Shown here in pieces: positions 14,722-31,780 of a stretch of DNA of 64,000 bases. Each line of letters starts with the position of its first letter. Position 1 is the stretch's first letter. Origin of the DNA: Gammaproteobacteria bacterium (GTDB taxonomy: Bacteria > Pseudomonadota > Gammaproteobacteria > Steroidobacterales > SZUA-146). Below the pieces are notes generated by a model, which had not been told where the DNA came from, searched no databases, and saw only the letters and a program-made list of their open reading frames with translations. The stretch spans positions 9,317 to 73,316 of the forward strand of contig JBGCFV010000060.1 in assembly GCA_045107075.1 (NCBI GenBank). The letters run 5' to 3'. Position numbers and translations under genes: made by a program.

Positions 14722-14742
14722 AAAAACAGTCAGTACTGTTTC
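14722..14742. promoter_or_regulatory. palindromic operator-like site (AAACAGTC-AG-TACTGTTT), copy 1 of 4
   Basis: aaaaACAGTCagTACTGTTtc lies 90-110 bp upstream of the E1-alpha start. It shares AACAGTC-NN-GACTGTT half-sites with the sites at 20509, 23690 and 31759. Confidence 0.5.
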
Positions 14743-14829
14743 TTTTATTTGATTAGCTTCGTATACTGGGACAAGCGAAGAGGGCGGGGACCACCGCGCC
14801 ACCAAGCGCCGGACTACAAGGAATTGACT

Positions 14830-15792
14830 ATGAATCAAGAGCAGCTGCTGCAGGCCTATCGGCAAATGAAAACCATCCGGGAATTCGAAGAGCGTCTGCA
14901 TGTCGAGATTGCGACCGGTGCCATTCCCGGTTTCACCCATTTGTACAGCGGCCAGGAAGCGGTTGCAGTTGGCGTCTGCTTAAATCTCGACGTGGATGAT
15001 TACATTGTCAGTACTCACAGAGGTCACGGCCACTGTATTGCGAAAGGATGCGATGTCGTTGGCATGATGAAAGAAATCTACGGTCGTGCGGATGGCTTGT
15101 GCAAAGGTAAGGGCGGCGCAATGCACATCGCCGACTTCGAAAAAGGCATGCTCGGAGCGAACGCTATCGTTGGTGGCGGACCACCCATTGCAACTGGCGC
15201 GGCGATTGCCACCAAGCTCGATGGCAAAGGCAAGGTGACCGTCTCGTTCGGAGGCGATGGCAGTTCTAATCAAGGCACTGTCTTTGAAGCGATGAACCTG
15301 GCGGTAGTGTTAAAACTTCCCACTATTTTCGTTTACGAAGACAATGGCTATGGTGAGCACACCGGCGCGAGCTACGCCGTTGGCAGCGAAGACATCGCCG
15401 CACGTTCAGCTGCGTTTGGAATGCCAGCGCTTAAGGTAGATGGAAGCGATTTGTTTGCGGTTCATGAGGCCATGAGTGAACTGGTGGCGCGGGCCAGAAA
15501 CGGCGAAGGCCCGGCAACACTGGAATGCAAAACCACGCGATTCTACGGTCATTTCGAAGGTGATCCTCAGCGTTATCGGGCAAAAGACGAAGTGGCTGAA
15601 CATCGGGCAACGATGGACTGCCTGACTATTTTTAAACAGCGGGTCACAGAGTCTCAGCAGGTCGATGAGAATGCGTTAGCTCGTATAGATGCCGAAGTCA
15701 GCGCGTTAATTGAACACGCGGTGGAAGCGGCACAAAACGCGCCAGCGCCGACCTTGGAAGATCTGACTACTGACGTGTACGTGACGTATTAG
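14830..15792 (+). CDS. thiamine-diphosphate-dependent 2-oxoacid/acetoin dehydrogenase E1 component, alpha subunit
   Basis: MNQEQLLQAYRQMKTIREFEERLH plus the GDG(x)nN TPP motif FGGDGSSNQGTVFEAMN. AAGGA RBS precedes ATG 14830. The track ORF from 14701 has no support. Confidence 0.85.
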   Translation: MNQEQLLQAYRQMKTIREFEERLHVEIATGAIPGFTHLYSGQEAVAVGVCLNLDVDDYIVSTHRGHGHCIAKGCDVVGMMKEIYGRADGLCKGKGGAMHIADFEKGMLGANAIVGGGPPIATGAAIATKLDGKGKVTVSFGGDGSSNQGTVFEAMNLAVVLKLPTIFVYEDNGYGEHTGASYAVGSEDIAARSAAFGMPALKVDGSDLFAVHEAMSELVARARNGEGPATLECKTTRFYGHFEGDPQRYRAKDEVAEHRATMDCLTIFKQRVTESQQVDENALARIDAEVSALIEHAVEAAQNAPAPTLEDLTTDVYVTY

Positions 15793-15847
15793 AATCCTTG
15801 ATCAATCTGTGTTTTTCACCTGACTATCCAAGACGAAGAGAATTCAT

Positions 15848-16852
15848 ATGCCAGTTAAGTCTATGCGTGACGCATTAAACGAAACGTTGCATCAGGAGAT
15901 GGAACGAGACCCTAAGATAATTGTGCTTGGTGAGGACGTTGCAGGCGGACAGGGTGGTACCGGCGTCGAAGAAGCGGCCGGCGGCATCTTCGGTGTAACC
16001 AGTGGCCTTTACAAGAAGTTCGGTGCCGACCGCGTAATTGATACGCCGATCAGCGAATCCGCTATTGTAGGTGCCGCGGCTGGTGCCGCTCTTGCCGGGT
16101 ATCGGCCGGTTGCTGAGCTCATGTTTGCTGACTTCATCGGTGTTTCGATGGACCAGCTTTACAACCAGATTGCCAAGTTTCGCTATATGTTCGGTGGTAA
16201 AACAAAATGCCCGGCTATCATTCGTATGCCCACCGGTGCCGGCATGAACATGGGGGCGCAGCATTCACAAACAATCTACTCAATTGTGACCAGTGTTCCA
16301 GGCTTAAAGGTGGTGATACCTTCTAACGCCGCCGACGCAAAAGGCATGTTAACCACGGCGTTACGTGAAGACGACCCCGTCGTCTTTTTCGAACACAAGG
16401 CGCTGTACCCTAAAAAATGTGAAGTGCCAGACGGCGACTATCTCGTTCCATTCGGCGAGGCAGCGCTAGTACGAGAAGGCGATGATGTAACGGTAGTCGC
16501 CATAGCGCGGATGGTTCCTTTTGCAGAAAAGGCCATTGATAAACTGGCAAGTGACGGTATTACCTGTGACCTGGTTGACCCGCGCACAACGTCGCCGCTG
16601 GATCTGGAAACGATACTTGAAAGCCTTGAAAACACCGGGCGGCTTGTAGTCGTTGATGAATCAAATCCGCGCTGCAGTACCGCATCAGACATTGCCGGTC
16701 TGGTTGCCGTACACGGATTTCACTCGTTGAAAGCCCCCGTCGAAATGGTCACGGCACCGCATACACCGGTACCATTTGCGCGCGAGCTTGAGCGTGCTTA
16801 CGTACCTAGTCCTGTCGCTATCGAAGCGGCCATTCGCAAAGTTCTGGGTTAA
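15848..16852 (+). CDS. 2-oxoacid/acetoin dehydrogenase E1 component, beta subunit (transketolase-like)
   Basis: 334 aa with typical E1-beta motifs (IVLGEDV..., FGGKTKCPAIIRMPTGAG). Confidence 0.9.
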   Translation: MPVKSMRDALNETLHQEMERDPKIIVLGEDVAGGQGGTGVEEAAGGIFGVTSGLYKKFGADRVIDTPISESAIVGAAAGAALAGYRPVAELMFADFIGVSMDQLYNQIAKFRYMFGGKTKCPAIIRMPTGAGMNMGAQHSQTIYSIVTSVPGLKVVIPSNAADAKGMLTTALREDDPVVFFEHKALYPKKCEVPDGDYLVPFGEAALVREGDDVTVVAIARMVPFAEKAIDKLASDGITCDLVDPRTTSPLDLETILESLENTGRLVVVDESNPRCSTASDIAGLVAVHGFHSLKAPVEMVTAPHTPVPFARELERAYVPSPVAIEAAIRKVLG

Positions 16853-16857
16853 AACAT

Positions 16858-18078
16858 ATGACAATTACGGCAGTGACCATTCCCAAATGGGGAATAGAAA
16901 TGCAGGAGGCTACGTTCTCCGATTGGCATGTTGAGCTTGGTGCTGAAGTGTCAAAAGGTGATGAGCTGGCCGATCTTGAAACCGACAAAATAGTTAACGT
17001 GGCCGAAGCGCCGGCGAGCGGTATTTTACGACGCCGTATCGCTGAAAACGGTGACGTTTATTCGGTGGGCGTTCTGATTGCCGTGATCGCCGATGCCAAT
17101 ATCAGTGACGAGGAGATTGACGCCTTTGTCGACGCCTTTGTTCCCATTGACGCGTCGTTTGATGAAGGTGACACTGAGGTGGCCGTGGCGAGCACAGTTG
17201 AGACAGCTCCAGCACCTTTGTCTGCACCACCTGCCGCGACAGCAACGGGCGCTGTGAGTATTAGCCCAATCGCTCGTCGTCTTGCCGAAAAGCTTGGCGT
17301 TGACTGGAGCGGAATTCAGGGTACCGGCAATAACGGGCGAATTTCTAAACAGGACATCGAGGCGGCCACAGCAGCGGCCAGTAGCGGCAGCGCTGCGGCA
17401 TCCGAGCCGTTGCAGCGTACCGGGTTGCAACGCACTGTTGCAACGCGCATGACCGAAGCCAAGCAGCAGATACCACACTTTTATTTACGTATTGAGGTTG
17501 AGCTTGACCGTGCCGAGACATTGCGCAGTGAGTTCAATGAGCGCCAGAACGCAAAGCTAACTATGAACGATGTGTTGTTAGTTGCTGTTGGCAAAAGCCT
17601 TGAAGAGTCTCCCGCGATAAACGTGCAGTATCGCGACGGCGAAGTGTATTCGATGGCGGGTTCCGACGTTGGCGTGGCTATTGCGTCACAACACGGGCTC
17701 GTGGCACCTGTAATTCGGGATGTGGCTAAGGCTAACATCAGCGCGGTTAGTCATAGTGTGCGAGCACTCAGCGATGCGGCTGATAAGCGGGAACTCAAAG
17801 CGGAGCATTTCGAGGGAGGTGCGACTACGGTGTCGAACCTGGGGAGCTACGGGGTGTCGGATTTCGTTGCTATTATTAACCCGCCGCAAACCTCAATTCT
17901 TGCCGTTGGGCGCGCAGCGCAGAAAGCCGTTGTGCGCGACGGGCAGGTCGGCGTTGCGATTAGCCTGACGTTGAATCTATCGTGCGATCATCGCGCTTTC
18001 GACGGAGCGGCTGGTGCGGGCTTTCTGCGTAACCTCAAGCAGCACCTTGAGCAGCCTGACGTTTTGTTCGGGGTTTAG
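16858..18078 (+). CDS. dihydrolipoamide acyltransferase (E2) component
   Basis: The N-terminal lipoyl domain holds ETDKIVNVAEAP (lipoyl-lysine). It also has a peripheral subunit-binding domain and the C-terminal catalytic motif DHRAFDGA. Confidence 0.85.
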   Translation: MTITAVTIPKWGIEMQEATFSDWHVELGAEVSKGDELADLETDKIVNVAEAPASGILRRRIAENGDVYSVGVLIAVIADANISDEEIDAFVDAFVPIDASFDEGDTEVAVASTVETAPAPLSAPPAATATGAVSISPIARRLAEKLGVDWSGIQGTGNNGRISKQDIEAATAAASSGSAAASEPLQRTGLQRTVATRMTEAKQQIPHFYLRIEVELDRAETLRSEFNERQNAKLTMNDVLLVAVGKSLEESPAINVQYRDGEVYSMAGSDVGVAIASQHGLVAPVIRDVAKANISAVSHSVRALSDAADKRELKAEHFEGGATTVSNLGSYGVSDFVAIINPPQTSILAVGRAAQKAVVRDGQVGVAISLTLNLSCDHRAFDGAAGAGFLRNLKQHLEQPDVLFGV

Positions 18079-18088
18079 TAAACCTGTC

Positions 18089-18114
18089 GAATCCCGGCCA
18101 ACGGGCCGGGATTC
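18089..18114. terminator. perfect 11-bp stem hairpin between convergent genes (bidirectional terminator candidate)
   Basis: gaatcccggcc-aacg-ggccgggattc. Confidence 0.55.
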
Positions 18115-18474: not shown

Positions 18475-18491
18475 GTTGTTCTCCAAAGTTG

Positions 18492-20147
18492 TTAGCCGAG
18501 TTCTTTTTCGAGCTCGTCGCGTAGTTTGTATTTCTGAATCTTGCTTGTGGACATGGGCCATTCCGTGACGAAGCGGACGTAACGAGGTACTTTGAAGCCC
18601 GCAATTTCGCCTTTGCAAAATGCAATGAGTTCTTCTGCTGTAACAGTCTTGCCGTCAGCCAGTTCTACAAAGGCCGCGGCCACCTCGCCCAAGCGATCAT
18701 CGCTTACGCCGACAACCTGGGCCATTTTCACCGCTTCATGTCTCGCAAGGAACGACTCGATTTCGGCGGCGGCAACGTTTTCGCCACCCACCTTCAGCAT
18801 GTCTTTCGTTCGGCCGTAGAACATGATTTGGCCGTCTGCATTAAAAGCACCGACATCACCCGTGTGATACCAGCCGTCGCTGTCTTTTGCCGAGGCCGTT
18901 TTTTCCGGGTCTTTATAGTAGTAGTCAAACAGGCTGTAACCACGAACAAGAATTTCTCCTCGTTCGTCGACTGGCATTTCTTTACCCGTCTCAAGGCTGA
19001 CTATGCGTACTTCCATCCCAGGTAAGGGTGTTCCCAGTCGACTCACTCGTGTTTCAAGCGGGTCATGTAGTTCACTCGTACAGACAGTACCGGCCGTTTC
19101 CGTCATGCCGAACGTGCCCACCTGTATCGTATTGGGCATTGCTTTTTGCATGGCTTCGGCAATGCCTGGCGGCTGTACGGCAAAATTACTGTTCATCAAC
19201 CGAACTTTGCTCAAGTCGGTCTTTTCAAAATTCGGATGGTGGATCAAGTCGGACATAATGGTAATAAAGCAGGGGTACGTGACTGACGCTTCTTCTCGCT
19301 CAAGCATGTCCAACGCAACACCCGCGTCGAAGTACGACATGGTTAGATACGCGGCGCCGACGTCGAATGAGCTTACGATAGGCAGGATTGCTGCAATGTG
19401 AAACATGGGCAGAGGTGACCAGAAGCGATCATCTTTGGTGAGTTTATATCGCTGTCGGCCTAACGCAATGCTGTTTCGAACCATAGCTTCGTGGCTAATA
19501 ACCGCACCCTTGGGGTTAGCGGTGGTTCCTGATGTGTACAGCATCAAGCCTGGGTCACGTACACGAACCTGCATGCGCCGGCCGTGCACATCGTCGTCAC
19601 TGACCGTTGTTGCAGCCTCGTCGAATTCCGTTTCGCTAAGAAAGCCTGGGGCGCTGCTACTTCCCAGCAGAACAAGGTTGCGCAACATCGGTGCTTCGGT
19701 GAGGTTGGCGTGTCTGGCATCTGTGATTCCAGAAATGCCGGGCAAGCCGCGAGAGAGGCGTTCTACAAAGTTCACCTGTTCGGCAATCTCGTCAGTAGTG
19801 ATAACGGTAACAAGGTCACCGTTTTGCACGACGTAGGTTAATTCGTGAGACTGGTAGCGCGCGTTAATAGGTACCGGCACCGCACCGCAAAGGCTCACTG
19901 CGAAGAAGATTTCCGGGAACTGGTAACAGGTCGGCAGCAGAATACCGACGTGTTCACCCTGTTGCACGCCCAGCGCGAGCAGGCCGCGTGCCCGCTGCAT
20001 GGCTTTGTCTCGCAGTTCAGCGTAGGTCAGGCGAAATTCCGGAAATACGATAGCGGGAGAGTCAGCATGCTCGTCAGCTGCTGACAACAGCAGATCTCCG
20101 AGCGTGGTAACGCGAATGCGGCTGTTCTGGTTGTCTGTTTTACTCAC
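18492..20147 (-). CDS. AMP-dependent acyl-CoA synthetase/ligase (FadD-like)
   Basis: Motifs TSGTTANPKG (AMP-binding) and GWYHTGD. The start is uncertain. GTG at 20147 avoids a 53-nt overlap with the upstream ABM gene. The alternative is ATG at 20210. Confidence 0.75.
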   Translation of the reverse strand: MSKTDNQNSRIRVTTLGDLLLSAADEHADSPAIVFPEFRLTYAELRDKAMQRARGLLALGVQQGEHVGILLPTCYQFPEIFFAVSLCGAVPVPINARYQSHELTYVVQNGDLVTVITTDEIAEQVNFVERLSRGLPGISGITDARHANLTEAPMLRNLVLLGSSSAPGFLSETEFDEAATTVSDDDVHGRRMQVRVRDPGLMLYTSGTTANPKGAVISHEAMVRNSIALGRQRYKLTKDDRFWSPLPMFHIAAILPIVSSFDVGAAYLTMSYFDAGVALDMLEREEASVTYPCFITIMSDLIHHPNFEKTDLSKVRLMNSNFAVQPPGIAEAMQKAMPNTIQVGTFGMTETAGTVCTSELHDPLETRVSRLGTPLPGMEVRIVSLETGKEMPVDERGEILVRGYSLFDYYYKDPEKTASAKDSDGWYHTGDVGAFNADGQIMFYGRTKDMLKVGGENVAAAEIESFLARHEAVKMAQVVGVSDDRLGEVAAAFVELADGKTVTAEELIAFCKGEIAGFKVPRYVRFVTEWPMSTSKIQKYKLRDELEKELG

Positions 20148-20157
20148 GGTGTCAGGC

Positions 20158-20451
20158 TCATTCGAGTGGGTCCAGGTACTCGCGTACGTATGGGCCGTCC
20201 AGGCATTCAATTAATTTGGGTGCTATCTGCTTAAAGTGTTCAGTCTGCTGGTGGGCGTGCTCTGCCTCCTCATTTAAAAAAGATTCGAACACGGCATATG
20301 AGAGAGGCTCACGCAGTTTATAAAACCGAAAGTAGAGCAGCTCGGGTTCGTAAACCACGGCTTTTTCGGTCAGGGTTTTACAGCATTCAATAAACTGCTG
20401 TTCCTTGTCGGCGTGCACCGTCATTCGCGAAAGAAAAGACATTACCGGCAT
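20158..20451 (-). CDS. ABM-domain monooxygenase-like small protein
   Basis: 97 aa, MPVMSFLSRMTVHADKEQQFIECCKTL...; ABM-like beta-alpha-beta pattern. Confidence 0.55.
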   Translation of the reverse strand: MPVMSFLSRMTVHADKEQQFIECCKTLTEKAVVYEPELLYFRFYKLREPLSYAVFESFLNEEAEHAHQQTEHFKQIAPKLIECLDGPYVREYLDPLE

Positions 20452-20508
20452 AACAAAACCCCTCTGACTCGGAAAATTCAGCCTCTAGCATAGCGCTGAC
20501 GCCAATAA

Positions 20509-20530
20509 AAAAACAGTCAGAACTGTTTAT
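20509..20530. promoter_or_regulatory. palindromic operator-like site (AAACAGTC-AG-AACTGTTT), copy 2 of 4
   Basis: aaaaaaACAGTCagaaCTGTttatttttt sits in the divergent region between the ABM gene (minus) and the Rieske ferredoxin gene (plus), about 65 bp from each start. Confidence 0.5.
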
Positions 20531-20584
20531 TTTTTCCGTTTCGAGTTAGATTTGGGTTACGGAAGGGTCTGCAGAGGATGAGGG

Positions 20585-20902
20585 ATGACATCAACGTTTG
20601 TTCTCGACACGAAAGAGGTTGAGGAGGGTGCGACCAAGCCGGTGATTATCGCCGGTCTGCGACTCCTCGTGTGCCACTCGAAGGGCGAGTTCTACGTTAT
20701 TCAAAATCAGTGCTCTCACGCGAAGGCGCGGCTGAAGGGTGGGAAGCTTCGGGGGTGTCGAATCTTCTGTCCACTTCACAGCGCCGCTTTCGATATGCGT
20801 ACTGGCGAAGCGCTTAGCGCTCCGGCAACTGGACCTATAGATGTCTATGCCGTTCATATTGACAACGGTTCGCTCTATATCGATTTGCCTGAGGGTGTTT
20901 AA
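20585..20902 (+). CDS. Rieske [2Fe-2S] ferredoxin (electron-transfer component for Rieske oxygenases)
   Basis: 105 aa with CSHAKARL...CPLHSAAF, which is CxH-(n)-CxxH. Confidence 0.8.
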   Translation: MTSTFVLDTKEVEEGATKPVIIAGLRLLVCHSKGEFYVIQNQCSHAKARLKGGKLRGCRIFCPLHSAAFDMRTGEALSAPATGPIDVYAVHIDNGSLYIDLPEGV

Positions 20903-21078
20903 CCGGATGTGGAAACAGGTGGCGTAGTTAAGAGCAAGGTAAATTCAATTCAAGGTAATTCCAATTGAGACCGGGCTACCGTTAGCACAACAAACAAGCG
21001 AAGACTGGCCTGTTCGACGAGAGCCGTATTGGCACAGAGAAAAATTGTAGATGAGTAATCAATTCAAGAGGTATCAGC

Positions 21079-22440
21079 ATGTCCGTAAACTATAAAGCAC
21101 AGTGGCCCATGAACCTGGGCACAAGCGCACCGTCGCTGGAGGCCAAGCAGCCCGATATTGATAACGGGCTGGATGTGTATGACCCGTCTCGCTATTACTC
21201 TCGGGAGTTTATGGATAAAGAAACGCGAGACCTTTGGCCACGAGTCTGGCTTCTGGCTGGCGTTGCTTCCGATATTCCCGAGGACGGCGACTACTTTGTT
21301 TTTGAAGTCGGCGCGGAACAAATCATTGTGGTTCGGCAGGACGACGATTCCATCGCAGCCTTTTACAACAGCTGTCCGCACCGCGGCAATCGCGTGTGCT
21401 TGAATCACAGCGGTACCGCTGGCAGCTTTACGTGTCCGTTTCACGGTTGGCGTTTTGGTATTGATGGCAAGCTGCAAGAGATCAGTGACGAAAAGACCTT
21501 TGATCCTCGTGTGGTCGCTCACCGGCCAGGGCTAACAGAAGTGCGCTGCGACAGTGTTGGCGGAATTGTGTTTATTAATATGGACGGTAAGGCACCGCCG
21601 CTGGTTGAGTATCTTGGTTTGCCGCCCGGATACATCGAGCAATATGAAGTTGAAAATATGCGCGTTGTGCACCACGTCAAAAGTGCCTGGAAAGCCAATT
21701 GGAAAATTGGTGTAGACGCCTTCTACGAAACGTATCACTTGCCTCACGTACATCCGCAAACTCAAGGGGTGATGGAGGATTTTTCACAAAATGACTTGTA
21801 TCCGAATGGCGCGTCGAGAATGATCGTCCCAATTTGTGTCAAATCGCATCGTATGGAAGATCAAGACTCCGTAGATCCTTATCAGGCGGCCATGATGATT
21901 GAGGCGGGAATGGATCCTGCAACGTTCAGTGGTACGGCGGCCGACGTGCGTGCCGCGGTTCAAGTTGCCAAGCGGGAGAGGGCGAAGAAACTCGGTTTGA
22001 CCCACTACGATAACTTTACCGATGGACAGTTAACCGACAGCTGGGCGACAGGATTGTTTCCCAATGTGCAGATGGGTATGCATCCAGAAGGGGTATTTAT
22101 AATGCGGTTCTTGCCACACTCGCACGACCCGGAGCAGTTCTACTACGAAACCATGATTCTCTATCGTCCGGTTGATGATCCTGATTACAACGTTCCAGCC
22201 TGGATGGGATTGCCCGAAGGCACGGATTGTTCAGGTGAGACGCGGCCCGATGTTATTCATGTGCCCCTTGGCGAAAGCCCTAACCTGGGCGAGGTGCTGG
22301 ACCAGGACGCAGAGCTGCTCCCGGTCCAGCAGCAAGGCGTTCGTTCGCGCGGTTTTCGTGGCGCCCTGTTTGGGGACCAGGAGCAGCGCGTAAGGCACTT
22401 CGAAGCGGAGGTTGAGCGCTACGTTAATGGTGAGAAATAG
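21079..22440 (+). CDS. Rieske non-heme iron oxygenase alpha subunit (alpha-only type), paralog 2
   Basis: CPHRGNRV...CPFHGWRF and DAFYETYHLPHVH. AAGAGG RBS. Confidence 0.85.
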   Translation: MSVNYKAQWPMNLGTSAPSLEAKQPDIDNGLDVYDPSRYYSREFMDKETRDLWPRVWLLAGVASDIPEDGDYFVFEVGAEQIIVVRQDDDSIAAFYNSCPHRGNRVCLNHSGTAGSFTCPFHGWRFGIDGKLQEISDEKTFDPRVVAHRPGLTEVRCDSVGGIVFINMDGKAPPLVEYLGLPPGYIEQYEVENMRVVHHVKSAWKANWKIGVDAFYETYHLPHVHPQTQGVMEDFSQNDLYPNGASRMIVPICVKSHRMEDQDSVDPYQAAMMIEAGMDPATFSGTAADVRAAVQVAKRERAKKLGLTHYDNFTDGQLTDSWATGLFPNVQMGMHPEGVFIMRFLPHSHDPEQFYYETMILYRPVDDPDYNVPAWMGLPEGTDCSGETRPDVIHVPLGESPNLGEVLDQDAELLPVQQQGVRSRGFRGALFGDQEQRVRHFEAEVERYVNGEK

Positions 22441-23659: not shown

Positions 23660-23689
23660 TTCACGCGATTATTGCAGCATTCGCTTAAA

Positions 23690-23711
23690 AAAAACAGTCA
23701 AGACTGTTTAT
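23690..23711. promoter_or_regulatory. palindromic operator-like site (AAACAGTC-AA-GACTGTTT, perfect 18-bp palindrome), copy 3 of 4
   Basis: The site lies in the divergent promoter region between the ACAD gene (minus, about 40 bp) and Rieske oxygenase 3 (plus, about 85 bp). Confidence 0.5.
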
Positions 23712-23787
23712 TTTGTTAGATATTAAACCTATACTTCTGGGTCATAAGTCGAAAACGACTTTGCTATTCGTGCTCACATCACGATGA

Positions 23788-25017
23788 ATGCTGGAGGGAT
23801 TAGTGGACAAGGCGACGATTGAACGGATTCTCTCAGGAATGAAGTTTGAGGCTGAGCGAGAGAGCCCTCCAGAAAACTTTCCGCGAATGCCCGATATTCC
23901 GGGCGGGCGGTACGTCGACCCGGCTTTCAATACATTAGAACATAAGCATTTGTGGCACAAAGCCTGGCTGTACGCCGCGCATATTGACGAGTTTCCTAAA
24001 GTCGGCAGTTTCAAAATGTTTACTCGAACGGGTGCCCCGATTTTCCTGATTCGAGGAAAAGACGATGAGATTCGCGCGTTTTACAACACCTGCCAACACC
24101 GTGGTGGTCCCTTGGTCAAGACGGACGCCGGTTCCGTTCGCAATCTTGTTTGCGGCTATCATGGTTGGTCCTATGATTTTACCGGCAAGCTGATAAACCT
24201 GCGTGATAAACGGGACTTTGTCGACCTAGATATGAACTGTCGTTCTCTCAAGGGTATCCGCTGTGAACGTTTTGGCAACTGGATCTTTGTGAGTGAAGAC
24301 CGTGATGCCGCACCTCTCCTTGAATCTTTAGGTCCGATTCCCAGTCATCTTGAGCCGTTTCAACTTGAGTCTCTCAGGCTCGTGGATTCCGCGTCTTATA
24401 CCGTCGACTGCAATGTCAAAATAATTCAAGACGCGTTTCTCGAGGTTTACCACCTCAAGTCGATACACCTGAAAACAGTTGATCGTTTTCTTGACCACAG
24501 AGGTACTACCATCTCTCTGTACGAAGGTGGGCATTCACTTATGGTCACTCCCAATCGTCGTGAAGGCTGGGTCGACCCGGGCACAATTGGTATGCCGGAC
24601 ACAGAGACAGTTCCCGATATCGTTCGCAATAATAATTTTTCCTACAATATGTACCCGAACATCGTGAGCCCAGTGGCTCATAACGGCATGCCCTTTATCG
24701 TGTTTTGGCCAAAGACTCACAACACGATGGTATTGGATGTCCATTGGTTTGCTCCAGACTGGGGCGGCGGAGAAAGAAACCCGCTGTGGGATAAACGAAT
24801 TGAAAATTTCGATCGAATTCTTGAAGAAGACACGCAGTTTGCACCTCAAATTCAGGCGTCGGTCGAGTCGCCTGGTTTTAAAGGGGTGCCACTGAACTAT
24901 CAGGAGAGACGCATCTATCACTGGCACGAAGAGCTTGATCGTCGCATCGGATCAGACAATATTAAACCCGATTTACGTGTAGATCCTGTGCTAAAAGATT
25001 TCGTGAGTCGCACTTAG
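23788..25017 (+). CDS. Rieske non-heme iron oxygenase alpha subunit (alpha-only type), paralog 3
   Basis: CQHRGGPL...CGYHGWSY and DAFLEVYHLKSIH. An alternative GTG start at 23803 follows a GGAGGG RBS. Confidence 0.8.
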   Translation: MLEGLVDKATIERILSGMKFEAERESPPENFPRMPDIPGGRYVDPAFNTLEHKHLWHKAWLYAAHIDEFPKVGSFKMFTRTGAPIFLIRGKDDEIRAFYNTCQHRGGPLVKTDAGSVRNLVCGYHGWSYDFTGKLINLRDKRDFVDLDMNCRSLKGIRCERFGNWIFVSEDRDAAPLLESLGPIPSHLEPFQLESLRLVDSASYTVDCNVKIIQDAFLEVYHLKSIHLKTVDRFLDHRGTTISLYEGGHSLMVTPNRREGWVDPGTIGMPDTETVPDIVRNNNFSYNMYPNIVSPVAHNGMPFIVFWPKTHNTMVLDVHWFAPDWGGGERNPLWDKRIENFDRILEEDTQFAPQIQASVESPGFKGVPLNYQERRIYHWHEELDRRIGSDNIKPDLRVDPVLKDFVSRT

Positions 25018-26444
25018 TGATAGGCATTGCAAGAATAGGCGTCTACTTACCGCAGTTACGACTGCGTCGTGACGCCATTGCATCAGCTCACGCATGGGGC
25101 GTACCCGCTTTAAAAGCACATGCGAAAGGCACGGTCGCTACCAGCAACTGGGATGAAGATGCGGTCACTATGGCGCACGAGGCGGCAAGGGAGATAGTCG
25201 TTACATCCGAATCCGACATCTCGGGCTTAAGCTTTTGCTCTACAAGTATGCCTTTTGCTGATCGTTCTCATGCAACCTTGCTGTGCGAAGCGCTAGGCTT
25301 GCAAACGAATATTCCCGTGCAAGACATAGCCGCTTCTCAGCGCGCCGGTACCTCAACTTTAATGGCTGCACTTCAAGGCCAAAGATCAGGCGAGCTGGTG
25401 ATTGCTTCTGAGCGACGTAAAGCACAGCCTGCCAGTGTGCAAGAAATGACGTATGGAGATGCGGCGGTCGCGCTTACCACAGGCGTCAGTAATCTGCTGG
25501 CAGAGTTCGTCGCGGCTACGTCTGTCAATGCTGATTTTGTTGATCACTATCGCTCCGCAGACAGCCAGTTTGACTACGCGTTCGAGCCGCGTTGGGTGCG
25601 CGATGAAGGCCAGCTTAAGCTCATAGCGGAAGCCATCGAAAGTGTGCTTGCAAAAGCAAAATGCGGAGCGTTGAGTGTCAATAGGCTGGTGATCAATGCG
25701 CCAACACGGGTAGCTGCGAAGCTGGCTAAAGCGACCGGTCTTGATAACGCCAACAGTGCATCAGTTATCGCCCAGCAAATCGGTCTGTCCGGCTGCGCAT
25801 CTCCACTAATGGCTTTGGCTGAATCCCTCGAGACCGCGCGTGAGGGCCAGTTAGTACTGTGTATCGGATTTGGGCAGGGTGCTGACGCGATGTTATTCCG
25901 TGCGGGACCAGCTGCCGGTAAACCTGAGGCTTTTTCTGCCGCGCTTTCCAAGGGCGTCGAAGATACGAATTATCTCAGATTTTTAAGTAATCGGAATTTG
26001 ATTGACATGGACTGGGGCATGCGAGCTGAACGGGATGTGCGCACCGCGCAGAGTGCGTACTATCGCGAACGAAATCAGATCACGGCGATGGTTGGCGGGC
26101 TGTGTTCGGCGTGTGGAACAGTGCAGTTTCCAAGAACCAAAAGTTGTGTCAATCCAGCGTGTCGTGAGCTGGGCGAGCAAGGTGAGTATTCGTTCGCAGG
26201 TAAACATGGTCGAGTTAAATCGTTTACCGAAGACTGGCAGGCGTACTCGCCTTCGCCGCCACTGACGTATGGCAACATCGAATTCGAAGGCGGGGCCAAC
26301 ATCATGATGCAGTTTACCGATACAAGAGCAGGAGATACGCAAATTGGTACTGAGGTTTCAATGCACTTTCGAATTAAAGACATTGACCGGCACCGAAATT
26401 TTCGCCGTTATTTTTGGAAAGCTATAGCGGCAGAGGCACTATAG
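25017..26444 (+). CDS. fusion protein: HMG-CoA-synthase-like thiolase-fold domain + DUF35 (Zn-ribbon/OB-fold) domain
   Basis: The N-terminal ~310 aa have the HMGCS/KAS-III-like fold (IGIARIGVYLPQLRL...). The C-terminal part has a 4-Cys zinc ribbon, CSACGTVQF...CVNPAC, followed by an OB-fold. This is characteristic of DUF35 proteins that partner SCP-x thiolases. GTG start overlaps the upstream stop (TAGTG). Confidence 0.7.
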   Translation: MIGIARIGVYLPQLRLRRDAIASAHAWGVPALKAHAKGTVATSNWDEDAVTMAHEAAREIVVTSESDISGLSFCSTSMPFADRSHATLLCEALGLQTNIPVQDIAASQRAGTSTLMAALQGQRSGELVIASERRKAQPASVQEMTYGDAAVALTTGVSNLLAEFVAATSVNADFVDHYRSADSQFDYAFEPRWVRDEGQLKLIAEAIESVLAKAKCGALSVNRLVINAPTRVAAKLAKATGLDNANSASVIAQQIGLSGCASPLMALAESLETAREGQLVLCIGFGQGADAMLFRAGPAAGKPEAFSAALSKGVEDTNYLRFLSNRNLIDMDWGMRAERDVRTAQSAYYRERNQITAMVGGLCSACGTVQFPRTKSCVNPACRELGEQGEYSFAGKHGRVKSFTEDWQAYSPSPPLTYGNIEFEGGANIMMQFTDTRAGDTQIGTEVSMHFRIKDIDRHRNFRRYFWKAIAAEAL

Positions 26445-27640
26445 TGGCCGAGGGGATTCGGGACAAAGTCGCTATTCTTGGCATGGGTTGCTCCCGTTTT
26501 GGCGAGCGTTGGGATATGAGTGCCGCAGACTTAATGGTAGAAGCGTTCACTGAGTGCGTTAGTGATGCCGGTATTGAGCGTGACGACATTGAAGCGGCAT
26601 GGCTCGGCGTTTTTTTTGACGAACAAAGTATCGGCAAGTCAGCGATACCGCTAAGTAACGCACTTCGACTCAATAATATTCCGGTTACGCGGGTAGAGAA
26701 TTTGTGCGCAACCGGCACTGAATCCTTTCGCGGAGCCGTGTACGCAGTTGCATCAGGGGCGTGCGATATTGCGCTGGCCATGGGTGTTGAGAAACTTAAA
26801 GATACCGGGTTCGCCGGTTTGCCCGAACGCACCAACGGCCCTTTCGACGATATGTGGTTACCTAATTCAACGGCTCCCGGTGCGTTCGCCCAGTTGGCGA
26901 GCGCCTACGGTCACCGACACGGTATTGATGTTTCGGACCTAAAGCGAGCCATGGCCCACGTGTCGGTTAAAAGTCATCGCAACGGTTTGCTGAACGACAA
27001 GGCGCACCTGCGCCGGGAAATAACCATGGAGCAAGTGCTTAATGCTCCGCCAGTAGCCTATCCGTTGGGCGTTCTGGATTGCTGTGGAGTAAGTGACGGT
27101 GCGGCGTGCGCTATTGTGGCCCGACCCGAGATTGCCCGTCAGCTCGGCAAGATCGACCTGGTAAGTGTAAAAGCACTTCAGCTGTCAATTAGTAATGGAG
27201 TTGAGTCTTCCCATAGCTCTTGGGACGGCTCTTACACGGCGACAACTCAACGGGCCTCGCGCAAGGCCTATGAAGAGGCTGGTATCAGCAACCCGGCCAG
27301 CGATCTGGATATGATTGAAGTGCATGATTGCTTTTCAATTACAGAACTGGTTTTGATGGAAGATCTCGGATTGTCCAAAGCAGGTCGGGCACCAGCGGAT
27401 GTTCTGGATGGGAGGTTTGACGCGGGAGGCGATATTCCGTGTCAGATTGACGGCGGTCTAAAGTGTTTTGGTCATCCTATAGGTGCCTCGGGCCTCAGAA
27501 TGATTTACGAAATGTACTTGCAGCTATCGGGCAGAGCAGGGCCCAGACAGCTTGAGAACCCTGAGTTTGGACTAACTCATAATCTTGGCGGAATCCCGAA
27601 TCGAAACGTCGCCAGCATTTCTATAATTGGAAGAATGTAA
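26444..27640 (+). CDS. thiolase-like SCP-x / lipid-transfer-protein-type 3-ketoacyl-CoA thiolase
   Basis: (M)AEGIRDKVAILGMGCSRFGERW... is the typical N-terminus of the non-specific lipid-transfer/SCP-x thiolase family. GTG start overlaps the upstream stop (TAGTG) and has an AGAGG RBS. Confidence 0.7.
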   Translation: MAEGIRDKVAILGMGCSRFGERWDMSAADLMVEAFTECVSDAGIERDDIEAAWLGVFFDEQSIGKSAIPLSNALRLNNIPVTRVENLCATGTESFRGAVYAVASGACDIALAMGVEKLKDTGFAGLPERTNGPFDDMWLPNSTAPGAFAQLASAYGHRHGIDVSDLKRAMAHVSVKSHRNGLLNDKAHLRREITMEQVLNAPPVAYPLGVLDCCGVSDGAACAIVARPEIARQLGKIDLVSVKALQLSISNGVESSHSSWDGSYTATTQRASRKAYEEAGISNPASDLDMIEVHDCFSITELVLMEDLGLSKAGRAPADVLDGRFDAGGDIPCQIDGGLKCFGHPIGASGLRMIYEMYLQLSGRAGPRQLENPEFGLTHNLGGIPNRNVASISIIGRM

Positions 27641-28513
27641 GTGACCATAAATAAACAATCAAACTTCGGGTTCAGCGACGAAGAGCTTAGCCAATTACCT
27701 TTGGTTTTTGCCGACAATTTGTTTGAAGGCAAGGTGTTTTTAATATCGGGTGGCGGTAGCGGGATAGGTAAGGCAACTGCGTTCGTCCTCACCCGGCTAG
27801 GTGCGAAAGTTATGATTTGCGGCCGCACTGAAGCAAAGCTCGTGGCGACGGCAAACAGTATTAAGAAAATGCTGGGTAAAGATATCGCTTATCACGCTAT
27901 GACTATTCGTGATCCGGAACAAGTTGACGCACTTATGGCCGATACGTGGGAGCGCTTTGGTGGCCTGGACGTTCTGGTTAATAACGGCGGCGGGCAGTTT
28001 CCGCAGGACGCAATTGATTTTAGTGTCAAAGGTTGGAATGCCGTCATTGATACCAATTTAAACGGCACGTGGTACATGATGCAAAGCGCCGCACAGCGAT
28101 GGCGCGATGAAAAAAAACCCGGGAACATTATTAACGTAGTTGCGGTTATCAACAGAGGGATGCCGCAAGTTGCACATACCTGTGCAGCTCGTGCCGGAGT
28201 CGTCTATTTATCCAAGACGGTTTCTACTGAATGGGCGCCTCTGAAAATCAGAGTGAACTGCGTGGCGCCGGGCTCTATCAGTACCGAAGGACTTGACGTA
28301 TACGAACCGGAAGTGGCCAGAATGTTTCAGTATGCGAACCCGATGCACGAGCTCGGTGACGTAGCGGATATATCTCAAGCTATTGCCTATCTTGCCGCAC
28401 CATCAGGCAAGTTCATTACTGGCGAAGTACTGACCGTAGACGGGGGTGCACAGCAATTCGGAGTGAATTGGTCTGCTGGCATACCGGACTATTTCAAAGT
28501 GAACGGGCGGTAG
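27641..28513 (+). CDS. SDR family oxidoreductase (2,4-dienoyl-CoA/enoyl reductase-like)
   Basis: GKVFLISGGGSGIGKA. GTG start is immediately after the upstream TAA. Confidence 0.75.
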   Translation: MTINKQSNFGFSDEELSQLPLVFADNLFEGKVFLISGGGSGIGKATAFVLTRLGAKVMICGRTEAKLVATANSIKKMLGKDIAYHAMTIRDPEQVDALMADTWERFGGLDVLVNNGGGQFPQDAIDFSVKGWNAVIDTNLNGTWYMMQSAAQRWRDEKKPGNIINVVAVINRGMPQVAHTCAARAGVVYLSKTVSTEWAPLKIRVNCVAPGSISTEGLDVYEPEVARMFQYANPMHELGDVADISQAIAYLAAPSGKFITGEVLTVDGGAQQFGVNWSAGIPDYFKVNGR

Positions 28514-28516
28514 ACT

Positions 28517-29047
28517 ATGAGGCTCCCAACGGGTAGAACACCGTTTCAACAAGCGTGGGTGGTTAACGACATAGAGCAAACGGCCCGGAGTTGGTCGGCC
28601 AGCTTAAACATAGGCCCATTTTATATCGCTGAATACACTCCGGACATGTTCGAATTCATTGACTACCGTGGGGGAGCGGGCAGCTTGCATATGAAAACGG
28701 CGATTGCGTACTCTGGCGACTCTCAAATTGAGTTGGTCGAGCCACTGGGGACCGCACCCAGTATCTATCGCGATGTGTATGAAAATGGACAGACCGGATT
28801 TCATCATCTGTGTTTCTGGAGTGACGAGTTTGAGCGTGATCTCGAACATCATGTGAGCCAGGGCCACGTCATTGCCAATGAGGGGAAAATGAAACGGGGG
28901 CCGCGATTTGCATACGTTGACGCAACGGAGACGTTGAACTGTGTTATCGAGGTGCTCGAGAGGCGACCGGCGCTCGTTGCGTTGTTTGACGAATGGCGCG
29001 AAGCCGCGAAAAGTTGGGACGGGAAGCGACCCGTAGTGAAGTTATAA
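28517..29047 (+). CDS. VOC (glyoxalase/bleomycin-resistance/extradiol dioxygenase) family protein
   Basis: 176 aa. A paired beta-alpha-beta-beta-beta module pattern is typical of the VOC superfamily. Confidence 0.55.
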   Translation: MRLPTGRTPFQQAWVVNDIEQTARSWSASLNIGPFYIAEYTPDMFEFIDYRGGAGSLHMKTAIAYSGDSQIELVEPLGTAPSIYRDVYENGQTGFHHLCFWSDEFERDLEHHVSQGHVIANEGKMKRGPRFAYVDATETLNCVIEVLERRPALVALFDEWREAAKSWDGKRPVVKL

Positions 29048-29095
29048 AACTCCAGAATTTACAAACGGGTCTAAACTGGTTCGAGCTTGGGTTAG

Positions 29096-29833
29096 CTAGA
29101 TTAGATTGGTGCTCCACTTAATGCCTCGTCTCAATAGCTCGTAGTAGGTTGGAAGCTCCCAGCTACAGCGCTCCACTACCGGGTAGTGATCCATAAGCGG
29201 TTTCATGTCGTCGTGGCCGCGACAGTGGCCCAGCGTCAAATACAAAACCTGACCTTCACCATATGGGTGTAAGTACATTACCGGTTGAGCCACGTCGCCG
29301 TCCCATTCTGTGGTTTCGAATTCGGGGGTCGAACCGCTGAAATGGCAGTGTAAAAGAGACGTGTGCTCGCCGATCATACGAGTCATATACAGTTCGTCGT
29401 TGGTTTCAAATGCCTCAATACCTTCAACCAGCGGATGTTCGGGTGCACTGACTTCAACACGAAAATCGCAAATAGGTGGGTGAGCTTCAAACTGGCTTCC
29501 GAGCATGCCCATAAACTCAGGCGCTTCATCCGGTGTGCCAATTTTGAGAGGTTTATAGCTTATCCAGCGAATGATTGAGTTCGTACCATGCAGTGCGAAC
29601 CAACGCTTGCCATCAGCCAGCCATGAAGACAACGCGTGCTGCTGTGCTTCAGTGGGAACAAGATCACACGTGTAGGTGATCAGGATGTCGGTGTCGGGGA
29701 GTTGGGCGGCGACGTCATAGTCTTCGGATACCGTGACGCTGAGGTTCTCTGATTCGTTAAGCAAGCCAAGAATCTCATCGCGAGCAAAGGCGAAGTCGTG
29801 GTAGTTCCCGCCACAGATAAGTAGCACGTTCAC
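29096..29833 (-). CDS. ThuA-like (class-I glutamine-amidotransferase-like) domain protein
   Basis: MNVLLICGGNYHDFAF... motif. Confidence 0.5.
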   Translation of the reverse strand: MNVLLICGGNYHDFAFARDEILGLLNESENLSVTVSEDYDVAAQLPDTDILITYTCDLVPTEAQQHALSSWLADGKRWFALHGTNSIIRWISYKPLKIGTPDEAPEFMGMLGSQFEAHPPICDFRVEVSAPEHPLVEGIEAFETNDELYMTRMIGEHTSLLHCHFSGSTPEFETTEWDGDVAQPVMYLHPYGEGQVLYLTLGHCRGHDDMKPLMDHYPVVERCSWELPTYYELLRRGIKWSTNLI

Positions 29834-31704
29834 TATTTTGCCGTTTTAAAAGCGAGAAGAACGTTGCCAGGCATGTGGAAATACACCCCGTACCCCGAAT
29901 TACTCAGCAGGTATCCGTTAGCTACAACGGGACCTGCACCACCAATTGAGCCTCCAAACGCGGTTGTACCCGCTTCATCATCGAAGCGGCGAGCCGTATC
30001 GTATTCCCATAGAACATGCCCGGTATCGGCGGCGTAAGTGCGCAACCGACCATCCATGTGTCCAGCGATTACCGCTCCCGGAATGGCCGTCACAGCGGCC
30101 GAAATACCCGGCTCGCAAAACTCTCTTCCGCGACAGACGTTGTTCGCAGGAGAAGTCCACATAATGGAACCGTCCAGTGCATTAACAGCCGAGATTCCCG
30201 GCTCTGCTGCGGACGTATACTCGGCGCCAGTATCCATATCTGAGATTGGAACGTATACCTTGCCCGATGCGGCGGCCATGCCGAAGTGTATGCCACCCTG
30301 AATACCGCCTCGACCTATTTGTGTTCGCCAGAGTGATTGTCCGGTATCCGGGTTAATGCCATGAACGGTACCGGACTTTTGACCGGCGACCAGGACTTGA
30401 GTGTCACCTGCGTTTACGAGTATGGCTGATGATCCAAAGTCATAGTCGGGGCCATCTTCAATCGGGCAGTTACTCTTGTCCTCGAGCATGCACGCTACAT
30501 TCCAGGCGTCACCACGGGTGGCCTGGTAGGTCCAAACACGTTCGCCTGTGTCTATATTAACGGCAATGATGGCGTCGCTGTTGTGGTCAGCCGGTGACGA
30601 GTAGTTCTCACCTGTGCCGCTGTATATTTGACGACGTTTTAAATCGATAGTTGGGCTATTCCATATGGGGGCGCCGGACGGGCCCAGGACAGGGGTGCCA
30701 ACTGCGGTCTTACTGTGTTGCTTGGGCGCGTTCTCTATGGTGTAGCTGCGCCAGACTTCGCTGCCGTCGTGAATGGACAGGGCGAGCAGCGAACCGCGGA
30801 AACTGCAGCACGGATAGTCCGGTGCAGCAGCTGAGGTGACCTCCAGCGATGACACAGGAACAATGAGTTTGTCTTCAACAAGACTGGGCGTACCTGTGAT
30901 GGTTGCATTGGGGTGGCTGTCAGCTTTTGTGCTCCAAAGTATTTCGCCGGAGGTTGCATTTACCGCGTATGCGCGTGCGAGCAGATCGCCAAAGAACAAT
31001 GTGGGGATGGGTCCCTCTTTGGCGACTATGGCCGTGCGTATTTCAGCGCCCACGTCTATTTTCCAGTGCATGCAGCCCGATCCAAGGTCGAGTGCATAAA
31101 GTGCCCCGTCCTGCGATCCGACAAACACGGTATTGCCGAAGACGGCGGGTTGAGAACGTGCTCGTAGTGCGCCGGGATAGGCGAACACCCAGGCGAGTTC
31201 CAGATCAGGTAAATCCGCTGCGGTCAGGCCGCCAGGTTGTTGAGGTTGTGAGCGAGTGTTGCGTGAGTCAAAGCCCCAGCCCGAGGCGACAACTCCCTGA
31301 CCAAGGTCGAACTTGTTTTCCTTGCTCGCGCATTGACGTGGCTCGGGAACCGCCAGGCTGGCAGCAAGAGTTGTGCCTGAAAGATACTCGGCAATCGCAA
31401 GGCGCTCTTTATCGGAAAGGCGTGAGGCCTGTTGCTGCATCAATCCATTTTGCATTGCACTATGAATCGATGCCGTAGGCATCATTTCAAGAAACATTTT
31501 GTGCGGTGCTTTTTGCACTCCACCTTCGTGACAGACGGCGCAATGGGTCTCGTACAATTTCGCTCCGTCAGGAGACATGTCGCTCGACTTGGAGATAGCC
31601 GCTTTGGTGTCAGCCATTTGGGTGTCCCGCGAGGGTGTTTGCACGCCGGATGTGCATCCCCACAAGGTTAGTAGAATGCTCAGAGTGATAGTCCTGATTA
31701 CCAT
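29833..31704 (-). CDS. lipoprotein with N-terminal c-type cytochrome domain (CAVCH) fused to PQQ-like beta-propeller
   Basis: The lipobox is LTLWGC. The heme site is CAVCHEG. Repeated PQQ-like beta-propeller segments follow (ALDLGSGCMHWK, AVNATSGEILW, INPDTGQSLW). Confidence 0.55.
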   Translation of the reverse strand: MVIRTITLSILLTLWGCTSGVQTPSRDTQMADTKAAISKSSDMSPDGAKLYETHCAVCHEGGVQKAPHKMFLEMMPTASIHSAMQNGLMQQQASRLSDKERLAIAEYLSGTTLAASLAVPEPRQCASKENKFDLGQGVVASGWGFDSRNTRSQPQQPGGLTAADLPDLELAWVFAYPGALRARSQPAVFGNTVFVGSQDGALYALDLGSGCMHWKIDVGAEIRTAIVAKEGPIPTLFFGDLLARAYAVNATSGEILWSTKADSHPNATITGTPSLVEDKLIVPVSSLEVTSAAAPDYPCCSFRGSLLALSIHDGSEVWRSYTIENAPKQHSKTAVGTPVLGPSGAPIWNSPTIDLKRRQIYSGTGENYSSPADHNSDAIIAVNIDTGERVWTYQATRGDAWNVACMLEDKSNCPIEDGPDYDFGSSAILVNAGDTQVLVAGQKSGTVHGINPDTGQSLWRTQIGRGGIQGGIHFGMAAASGKVYVPISDMDTGAEYTSAAEPGISAVNALDGSIMWTSPANNVCRGREFCEPGISAAVTAIPGAVIAGHMDGRLRTYAADTGHVLWEYDTARRFDDEAGTTAFGGSIGGAGPVVANGYLLSNSGYGVYFHMPGNVLLAFKTAK

Positions 31705-31758
31705 GTTTTTTCCGCTCTAATTTAGATGTCTGGGTACACTCAAATACTACCACGTAAA

Positions 31759-31780
31759 AAAAACAGTCCGACTTGTTTTT
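31759..31780. promoter_or_regulatory. palindromic operator-like site (AAACAGTC-CG-ACTTGTTT, degenerate), copy 4 of 4
   Basis: The site is in the divergent region between the cyt-c/PQQ lipoprotein gene and the TonB-dependent receptor gene. Confidence 0.4.

Follow-up and report, generated by a model that had tools for sequence, protein, structure and literature searches.

Background

KstR and KstR2 of Actinobacteria are known as TetR-type repressors of steroid catabolism (PMC8399759). In these regulons, one TetR-family repressor acts at a short palindromic operator repeated before many operons of a large catabolic island, the operons carry genes for uptake and for Rieske oxygenases, acyl-CoA dehydrogenases (ACADs), thiolases and CoA ligases, the regulator is encoded inside the island, and a pathway intermediate or CoA ester is the expected inducer. 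In this study, we report the analysis of a 64-kb stretch of gammaproteobacterial DNA (contig JBGCFV010000060.1, 64,000 nucleotides, referred to here as the window), in which a palindromic element lies at four places in an oxygenase and beta-oxidation gene island, and which would resemble the KstR and KstR2 regulons in all of these respects. Most likely, the element is a conserved operator of a TetR-family regulon and the mechanism is conventional.

The locus nevertheless differs from those regulons. The TetR-family protein encoded in the window is unrelated to KstR and KstR2 beyond the helix-turn-helix (HTH); its best match to KstR2 (4w1u, 4w97) has an E value of 2e-4 and covers residues 24-115 only, so that it does not qualify as an orthologue of either. 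The candidate operator, with arms AAACAGTCA and TGACTGTTT and A/T tracts, has another sequence and length, and its hosts are Proteobacteria. It corresponds to neither the KstR box nor the PsrA box, as we take these boxes to be. The PsrA box reads AAAC-N2-4-GTTT, whereas the outer AAAC and GTTT of the present element are 10 nt apart.

Other described systems share single features with the locus. The acyl-CoA-responsive TetR regulators (FadR of Bacillus and Sulfolobus, PsrA and DesT) have the same fold and beta-oxidation-type targets, and FadR structures 5gpc and 6en8 are among the nearest fold matches of the window protein (template modelling score about 0.55-0.62), yet they are just 15-19% identical. 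QacR- and DarR-type regulators bind long operators as pairs of dimers; the conserved footprint here, about 26-30 bp, likewise exceeds a single-dimer TetR operator, and the DarR 'dimer-of-dimers' DNA complex 8svd is also among the fold matches, although the sequences are unrelated. By analogy, paired dimers of this kind could explain the two half-site spacings reported below. Class II CRP/FNR promoters have a 5-N6-5 palindrome near -41.5 in place of the -35 element, as the promoters of the locus would; the half-site here, however, is AACAG and not TGTGA or TTGAT, and the gene linked to the sites encodes a TetR-family protein, with no CRP/FNR-family gene linked to them. The LexA SOS box (CTGT-N8-ACAG) differs in arrangement, the present element being ACAG-N6-CTGT, and the associated genes are catabolic rather than DNA-repair genes; an earlier reading of this DNA from its letters (the sequence-only reading) had correctly set LexA aside.

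No description of the motif or operator was found in searches of open-access text, and the bile-acid review PMC8399759 holds nothing on the operator system. The literature also led to PheR of Sphingobium, an unrelated IclR-family protein with a GCAACG motif.

Methods

The window was searched with the 16-mer AACAGTCNNGACTGTT, mismatches being allowed, and was scored with a 30-nt log-odds matrix (position weight matrix, PWM) made from the sites of other genomes, without those of the window. The scan for AAAAACAGTCNNNNNTGTTTNTTT covered one genome per bacterial species; the loci compared are labelled with L-numbers. Promoter geometry was counted over 129 related sites from other genomes.

A metagenome search outward from the TetR gene returned at least 579 relatives, the best 80 of which were 53-74% identical. 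The linkage count was restricted to the 46 TetR loci for which 1.7 kb or more of upstream sequence was available, using a site threshold of at least 25 bits.

Results and discussion

Four copies of a long palindromic element

The 16-mer AACAGTCNNGACTGTT matched at 23693 without mismatch, at 14725 and 20512 with one mismatch each, and at 31762 with three. By our own calculation about 0.01 matches with at most one mismatch would be expected per window, against the three observed. With up to three mismatches, 8 matches were observed versus 2.73 expected, and 8 was reached in one of 100 shuffles; judged by the 16-mer alone, the fourth copy is therefore at chance level. The flanks reveal a longer element common to all four copies, TAAAAAAACAGTC-N5-TGTTT-N-TTTT. 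In full it reads AAAAAA-ACAG-TCAnnn-CTGTTT-(A/C)TTTT and is 26-30 bp long, with an A-tract at the left and a T-tract at the right of every copy; the conserved core is AAACAG-N6-CTGTTT together with the left GTCA, and the right-hand GAC is not conserved. The 18-bp palindrome of the sequence-only reading is thus real, while the element extends beyond it and its right GAC does not belong to the conserved part.

Site 1 (14718-14747; core AAACAGTCAGTACTGTTT at 14724-14741) scored 36.9 bits with the PWM and lies upstream of the E1-alpha, E1-beta and E2 genes, 37 nt past the stop codon of Rieske oxygenase 1 and about 97 nt ahead of the E1-alpha ATG (14830). Site 2 (20505-20534; core AAACAGTCAGAACTGTTT at 20511-20528; 37.3 bits) is flanked by the start of the ABM monooxygenase gene at 20451 on the minus strand and by the Rieske ferredoxin gene at 20585, and so lies between the divergent ABM/CoA-ligase and ferredoxin/Rieske-2 units. 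Site 3 (23686-23715; core AAACAGTCAAGACTGTTT at 23692-23709; 41.6 bits) is placed between the ACAD start at 23659 on the minus strand and the divergent Rieske-3 operon, which starts at 23788 or 23803. Site 4 (31755-31784; core AAACAGTCCGACTTGTTT at 31761-31778; 33.5 bits) separates the gene for a pyrroloquinoline quinone (PQQ)/cytochrome c protein, starting at 31704 on the minus strand and followed by ThuA, from the divergent gene of a TonB-dependent receptor with a probable ATG at 31900. These positions relative to the genes agree with those first proposed, and the gene names given at that time were confirmed by Pfam scans.

The next independent PWM match in the 64 kb reached just 2.2 bits, and the maximum over 30 mononucleotide shuffles was 11.4 bits. 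In the register AAACAG-N6-CTGTTT, sites 1-3 have no mismatch and site 4 has one. The window therefore holds four copies, as had been claimed, and no more; the fourth, which had been called degenerate, is genuine and departs from the register at a single position.

One further stretch, AAACAGCGAATAATGTTT at 41866-41883, just before a starch-synthase-like gene (41878), has one mismatch to AAACAG-N6-CTGTTT. It has no A/T flanks, scored 0.3 bits and is probably a chance match.

Conservation of the sites across genomes

Rieske oxygenase 3 shares 69-73% identity with its closest relatives, and their contigs retain both the divergent gene for ACAD and the operon comprising Rieske oxygenase, fusion of a 3-hydroxy-3-methylglutaryl-CoA (HMG-CoA) synthase-like domain with DUF35, thiolase and short-chain dehydrogenase/reductase (SDR). 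Every one of them (L002, L003-L006 and L007) carries AAAAAAACAGTCA-N4-TGTTT(A/C)TTTT at the orthologous place, followed by TATACT or TATAAT. The site is embedded there in GC-rich spacers that are otherwise unrelated, and the left GTCA is kept while the right GAC is not. An identical copy of site 2 was found in a 2.9-kb Logan contig.

The scan for AAAAACAGTCNNNNNTGTTTNTTT gave at least 120 stretches. Among those listed, about 97 were from Proteobacteria and about 21 were evident chance matches in AT-rich or unrelated phyla. The hosts among the matches listed include Halioglobus, Haliea, Luminiphilus and other Halieaceae, Steroidobacteraceae, Woeseiaceae and Porticoccus, together with many unclassified Gammaproteobacteria and a few Alphaproteobacteria. 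Rieske oxygenase alpha subunits adjoin sites in 58 loci of the matches listed. E1-alpha orthologues do so in seven loci outside the window (cluster C8) and TonB receptors in 12 cases (cluster C3), and orthologues of the ferredoxin, ABM and AMP-ligase genes border sites elsewhere (clusters C4, C9 and C10). The neighbours in other genomes further comprise SDRs, thiolase-like and DUF35/HMG-CoA-synthase-like proteins, a protein of about 305 amino acids resembling glutathione S-transferase (GST), acyl-CoA ligase, ACAD, E1-beta, E2, glyoxalase and a family III CoA-transferase, and in Halieaceae an RPE65-type oxygenase paired with a SnoaL protein. The recurrence of the motif ahead of orthologous genes, across bacterial orders, upholds the proposal of the sequence-only reading that it is a candidate operator of an uncharacterised regulon.

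Several near-identical copies, all of them intergenic, might also be expected of a dispersed repeat, such as a repetitive extragenic palindrome or a miniature inverted-repeat transposable element, or of coincidence in A/T-rich promoter DNA. Similarity between the copies, however, stops within about 30 bp, copies stand at orthologous genes in genomes of different orders, and the scores are far beyond those of shuffled sequence. An origin of this kind is scarcely credible, and the recurring set of neighbours reads as the signature of a regulon rather than of a repeat.

Two features of the neighbourhoods were discarded on inspection. The recurrent divergent gene of about 305 amino acids, taken by its size for a LysR regulator, encodes the GST-like protein, and several apparently recurrent open reading frame (ORF) clusters were antisense artefacts of high-GC genes.

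In L051 (Sneathiella, 5271-5294) and L077 (Rhodobacteraceae, 6362-6385) the motif stands ahead of an isochorismatase-family gene and genes labelled, from their size and order only, as resembling TRAP-type (tripartite ATP-independent periplasmic) transporters, and not ahead of oxygenases. Motif-bearing contigs also occur in metagenome-assembled genomes labelled Klebsiella pneumoniae (L104), Planktophila lacus (L081) and Janthinobacterium lividum (L025, L078 and L100); in L025 genes for GST-like proteins and Rieske oxygenases adjoin the motif. Mis-binning probably accounts for these contigs.

Position of the sites relative to putative promoters

A TAnnnT hexamer (TATACT, TATAAT, TACAGT or TACCAT) follows TGTTTNTTT at 14-17 nt in 84 of the 129 sites. 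It stands at exactly 16 nt in 50 sites and at 14 nt, the second commonest spacing class, in 18, against a background of about 0.7% per offset. In the window, TATACT at 14762-14767 on the plus strand, 17 nt after TGTTTCTTT of site 1, would be the -10 box of the E1-alpha promoter, and TATACT at 23730-23735 on the plus strand, 17 nt after TGTTTATTT of site 3, that of the Rieske-3 promoter. The spacing at the site 3 position is identical in the relatives (TATACT in L002, TATAAT in L007). Site 2 has such a box on either side, TAGATT at 20547-20552 on the plus strand, 14 nt after the site towards the ferredoxin gene, and the mirror-image TATGCT at 20487-20492 on the minus strand, 14 nt from its other arm towards ABM. 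If the -10 box is this hexamer, the palindrome would be centred at about -41.5, its proximal arm and T-tract replacing the -35 element. The palindrome would thus overlap the promoters of the adjoining genes, as these are placed by the -10-like box.

An A-tract, an inverted repeat and a T-tract are also the parts of a bidirectional intrinsic terminator or an attenuator hairpin, in which the palindrome would act as RNA, and site 1 lies close behind the Rieske-1 stop codon. The hairpins are nevertheless weak and AU-rich (-5.5 to -6.9 kcal/mol, z-scores -1.65 to -2.36), and are not the stable G+C-rich stem-loop with a U-tract at the 3' end of a gene that characterises intrinsic terminators. A terminator scan called none of the four sites, and at E <= 1 the region 11000-33000 gave no relevant Rfam match. 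Divergent gene starts flank three of the four sites, leaving nothing to terminate there, and relatives keep the half-site sequence and not the stem pairing, the right-arm GAC varying without compensating changes. Action of the element as RNA is highly improbable.

The TetR-family protein and its linkage to the motif

The window encodes a TetR-family regulator at 11082-11726 on the minus strand (Pfam TetR_N, E = 2.1e-9), which we propose as the cognate repressor. Its AlphaFold2 model is all-helical with 9 helices (mean predicted local distance difference test score 88.6), and the top PDB fold matches are all generic TetR-family proteins of 14-22% identity; Pfam, the model and the fold search agree on an N-terminal TetR-type HTH followed by an all-helical ligand-binding domain. 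The PDB fold search gave no clue to the ligand. Because the NCBIfam matches, among them a weak one to FasR, are all far below cut-off, the PDB sequence matches span little beyond the HTH and the fold matches are generic, the protein belongs to no named subfamily. It is the sole regulator detected by Pfam among the window ORFs scanned, in agreement with the sequence-only reading.

In about 1 Mb of DNA around sites (8-kb loci), the only recurrent regulator was a homologue of this TetR protein. Such homologues occur in L013 and L086 (62% identical in each), L123 (50%), L117 (39%), L014 (partial), Tistlia (L044, 31%) and Primorskyibacter (L029, 22%), and in the latter two genera a full site lies about 50-70 nt ahead of the likely TetR start. 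The homologues linked to sites all share the invariant recognition helix SRGA(M/L)LHH(F/Y). When the search was anchored on TetR, a site lay 0.3-3.2 kb upstream in 29 of 46 metagenomic loci, against a chance expectation of fewer than 0.1; this was usually a perfect AAACAGTCATGACTGTTT between two SDR genes.

The same island is found on megaplasmids of cultured Sphingomonadales, where the TetR orthologue is 45-48% identical. In both Sphingobium sp. RAC03 (TetR protein WP_069064393.1) and Croceicoccus marinus E4A9 (WP_232468999.1), the spacer between TetR and SDR contains two full sites (29-36 bits), of which one stands 19-20 nt ahead of the annotated TetR ATG, and weaker sites lie ahead of SDR, VOC/NTF2 and ABM/TonB genes. 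The more distant paralogue of N. aromaticivorans (35% identical) has no site. In the window the TetR gene is adjacent to and divergent from SDR1, and this arrangement is kept in those of the L128-L207 loci that hold SDR1 and in L208 and L209. Linkage of this kind is the standard comparative-genomics argument for assigning a factor to a motif, and it points to the local protein; the suggestion that the cognate regulator might lie outside the window found no support, the local TetR being the one regulator that recurs near sites and its orthologues being linked to the motif.

The TetR-SDR1 spacer and a second half-site spacing

According to the sequence-only reading, the TetR promoter had no copy of the palindrome. 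No canonical copy is present, but the spacer is not empty, since a conserved composite block with related half-sites at +4 spacing lies at 11779-11826 on the plus strand and consists of AGAAAAAAGTCAAAGCAGATTGAAACCGGATGGCCTGACTGG and the -10-like TATACA. The block is conserved in the 16 orthologous loci shown, and gammaproteobacterial relatives likewise have in this spacer, instead of the main motif, a conserved block of about 45 bp with the consensus AAAAAAGTCAAAG-NN-GATTGAAAC(C/A)GGA-N5-TGACTG(G/T)-TAnnnn. In some loci it reads AAAAAA-CAATCA-CGCG-TGATTG-AAA-CAGTCA-GGAG-TGACTG-TTAGCAT. Its hexamers are those of the main motif (CAGTCA/TGACTG and CAATCA/TGATTG) set 4 bp wider apart, and the last half-site abuts the -10-like box. 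The best proximal scores in TetR spacers had a median of 3.0, compared with -22.9 for random segments. While the window has the degenerate +4 block in the TetR gene's own promoter, RAC03, Croceicoccus, Tistlia and Primorskyibacter have full sites there.

Half-site pairs were counted by spacing, from 0 to 12, in 1.6 Mb of fetched loci. Spacing 0 occurred 54 times and +4 occurred 25 times (17 independent), all others at most five times. A 'spacing 6' class also seemed to be present for the 16-mer, but AAACAAACAG / TGTTTGTTT repeats and AATCAG-N6-CTGATT variants produced part of it as an artefact; the +4 class persisted as real after the recount.

The SDR1-SDR2 junction, farther along the same unit, was found in two states. 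In L154, L164, L167, L168 and others the genes are separated by 77-2000 nt, and the gap holds a full operator and a -10 box. In the fused state the gap is 13-49 nt and has no operator; this state is seen in the window (12605-12620), its two closest relatives and seven other loci, the fused junctions including L128, L129, L182, L184, L189, L198, L201, L204 and L207. An isolated half-site, GACTGTT, had been placed at 12612; it exists, at 12614-12620. That it is the relic of a lost operator found no support, as close relatives with the same fused junction are without it. Because the other fused loci do not share it, the half-site is probably there by chance.

Proposed mechanism

The reading that we favour, and consider probable, is that the four elements are operators of the local TetR-family protein (11082-11726), which would occlude the -35 region of five promoter regions until released by a substrate or CoA thioester. 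In the absence of inducer, a TetR dimer or a pair of dimers would occupy the operator, a 26-30-bp palindrome with halves AAAAAACAGTCA and TGACTGTTTnTTTT directly upstream of a sigma-70-type -10 box, and would block RNA polymerase. Five promoter regions, three of them divergent, would be blocked in this way and about 20 genes silenced, namely those for the three Rieske oxygenases and the ferredoxin, SDRs, the 2-oxoacid-dehydrogenase-like complex, acyl-CoA ligase, ACAD, the thiolase and DUF35 proteins, the PQQ/cytochrome c protein and the TonB-dependent receptor. A pathway substrate or CoA-thioester intermediate would bind the C-terminal pocket and cause the repressor to be released. The sites, their fixed position relative to the -10-like box and their linkage to TetR orthologues are observed; from these we infer binding by TetR, repression by binding and the nature of the inducer.

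Several observations weigh against this reading. The window's own TetR promoter has only the degenerate composite block, at about -1 bit, and three TetR loci (L129, L182 and L184) have no main-type site within 6 kb. One rigid dimer is unable to read spacing 0 and spacing +4 alike, and two-dimer binding or a second register is therefore possible. Scanning for the sigma-70 consensus gave no canonical -35/-10 pair at sites 1-4, so that the promoters were placed by their -10-like boxes alone, and the tight -10 spacing with a centre at -41.5 is the classic position of a class II activator rather than of a repressor. Finally, the co-localisation of TetR with the motif could reflect TetR being a mere member of another factor's regulon.

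These points bear on three alternatives. In the first, the motif is bound by another factor encoded elsewhere, for example a class II activator of the CRP/FNR kind, and TetR controls only its own divergent promoter through the composite block. The 5-N6-5 geometry (AACAG-N6-CTGTT) centred at about -41.5, the strict spacing, the promoters without a recognisable -35, the different half-site spacing in the TetR-proximal block and the TetR loci without a main-type site nearby would all suit such a factor. No second regulator family, however, recurs in the DNA around sites, Sphingomonadales, Tistlia and Primorskyibacter have the main-type motif directly ahead of TetR, the TetR-proximal block is built from the same hexamers CAGTCA/TGACTG, and the linkage in 29 of 46 loci would be hard to account for. 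We regard a separate factor as rather unlikely.

In the second, the local TetR protein does bind the motif, but as an activator or dual regulator from -41.5, as the fixed -10 spacing, the absent -35 and the A-tract further upstream might suggest. TetR-family activators exist, and NCBIfam lists FasR, a weak match here, as an activator. Repressors nevertheless make up the great majority of the TetR family, the site 19-20 nt before the TetR ATG in Sphingomonadales is at a position expected to block, and the service of back-to-back divergent promoters by a single site, as at site 2, fits occlusion. Activation by the local protein is distinctly unlikely.

In the third, a single TetR protein would read two geometries, with half-sites abutting in the promoters of the regulon and 4 bp apart in its own, perhaps by switching between one and two dimers and perhaps as an activator or dual regulator from -41.5. 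This idea is speculative and itself unlikely; if true, it would give graded control of TetR itself as against its targets.

Under the favoured reading, repression by the local TetR, the motif delimits a sharply defined regulon that is common among abundant, uncultured bacteria of sediment and soil; its hosts are Woeseiaceae, Steroidobacteraceae, Halieaceae and Sphingomonadales of marine-sediment, soil and freshwater origin. The operator offers a practical handle for listing the full gene set of the regulon in any genome, and Sphingobium sp. RAC03, Croceicoccus marinus E4A9 and Novosphingobium sp. PP1Y are cultured hosts for work on repressor and inducer. Its enzyme set, which includes three orphan Rieske oxygenases, an HMG-CoA-synthase-like/DUF35-thiolase pair, a 2-oxoacid-dehydrogenase-like complex, a GST and a TonB receptor, fits no characterised pathway among those compared (steroid, bile-acid and phenanthrene). 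Because the mechanism would be a standard TetR-type switch, the value of the finding lies in annotation and pathway discovery and not in a new principle.

Gene content of the island and of the rest of the window

The SDR1-SDR2-Rieske oxygenase 1 unit (11798-14687, plus strand) is fused in this genome and would be read from the TetR-proximal promoter. Downstream of site 1 lie the E1-alpha, E1-beta and E2 genes of a complex resembling 2-oxoacid or acetoin dehydrogenases (14830-18078, plus strand). The ABM monooxygenase and acyl-CoA ligase genes (18492-20451, minus strand) run leftward from site 2, and the Rieske ferredoxin and Rieske oxygenase 2 genes (20585-22440, plus strand) run rightward from it. 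From site 3, the ACAD gene (22463-23659, minus strand) runs leftward, and the operon of Rieske oxygenase 3, HMG-CoA-synthase-like/DUF35 fusion, thiolase-like protein, SDR and glyoxalase (23788-29047, plus strand) rightward; both are kept in L002-L007. Site 4 is followed leftward by the PQQ/cytochrome c and ThuA genes (29096-31704, minus strand) and rightward by the TonB-dependent receptor (31900-34293, plus strand), the probable ATG of which stands behind the ribosome-binding site GAGGGGG.

The three Rieske oxygenases (13383-14687, 21079-22440 and 23788-25017) are paralogous and alpha-only and are accompanied by one Rieske ferredoxin (20585-20902); among the ORFs scanned in the window, neither a beta subunit nor a reductase turned up. 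Their nearest solved relatives are distant, being of the stachydrine demethylase and carnitine monooxygenase types (E about 1e-24), and searches of PDB and NCBIfam returned distant relatives only, without a pointer to the substrate.

The segment at 25017-27640 encodes a 475-aa protein in which an archaeal-type HMG-CoA-synthase-like domain is fused to a DUF35/ChsH2 zinc ribbon and oligonucleotide-binding (OB) fold, and which adjoins a thiolase-like protein (NCBIfam PRK06157, E = 1e-200). The pair recalls the archaeal thiolase/HMG-CoA synthase/DUF35 complex, although here it is found inside an oxygenase operon.

Beyond the island, 38938-43473 holds genes for a 4-alpha-glucanotransferase, a glucose-1-phosphate adenylyltransferase-like and a starch/glycogen-synthase-like protein, followed by three large ORFs (43433-50312); there are no operator sites in 38938-50312. 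A putative zinc protease, a seven-transmembrane inactive-transglutaminase fusion protein and a sugar-transfer-associated ATP-grasp protein are encoded at 50543-54057 and are unrelated to the operator finding. At the edge of the window, 59042-63868 contains a 189-aa fragment resembling cobalamin-independent methionine synthase, an HNH endonuclease gene (59788-60357), an SPFH/Band 7 gene and RtcB, and may be a small mobile or defence-related patch.

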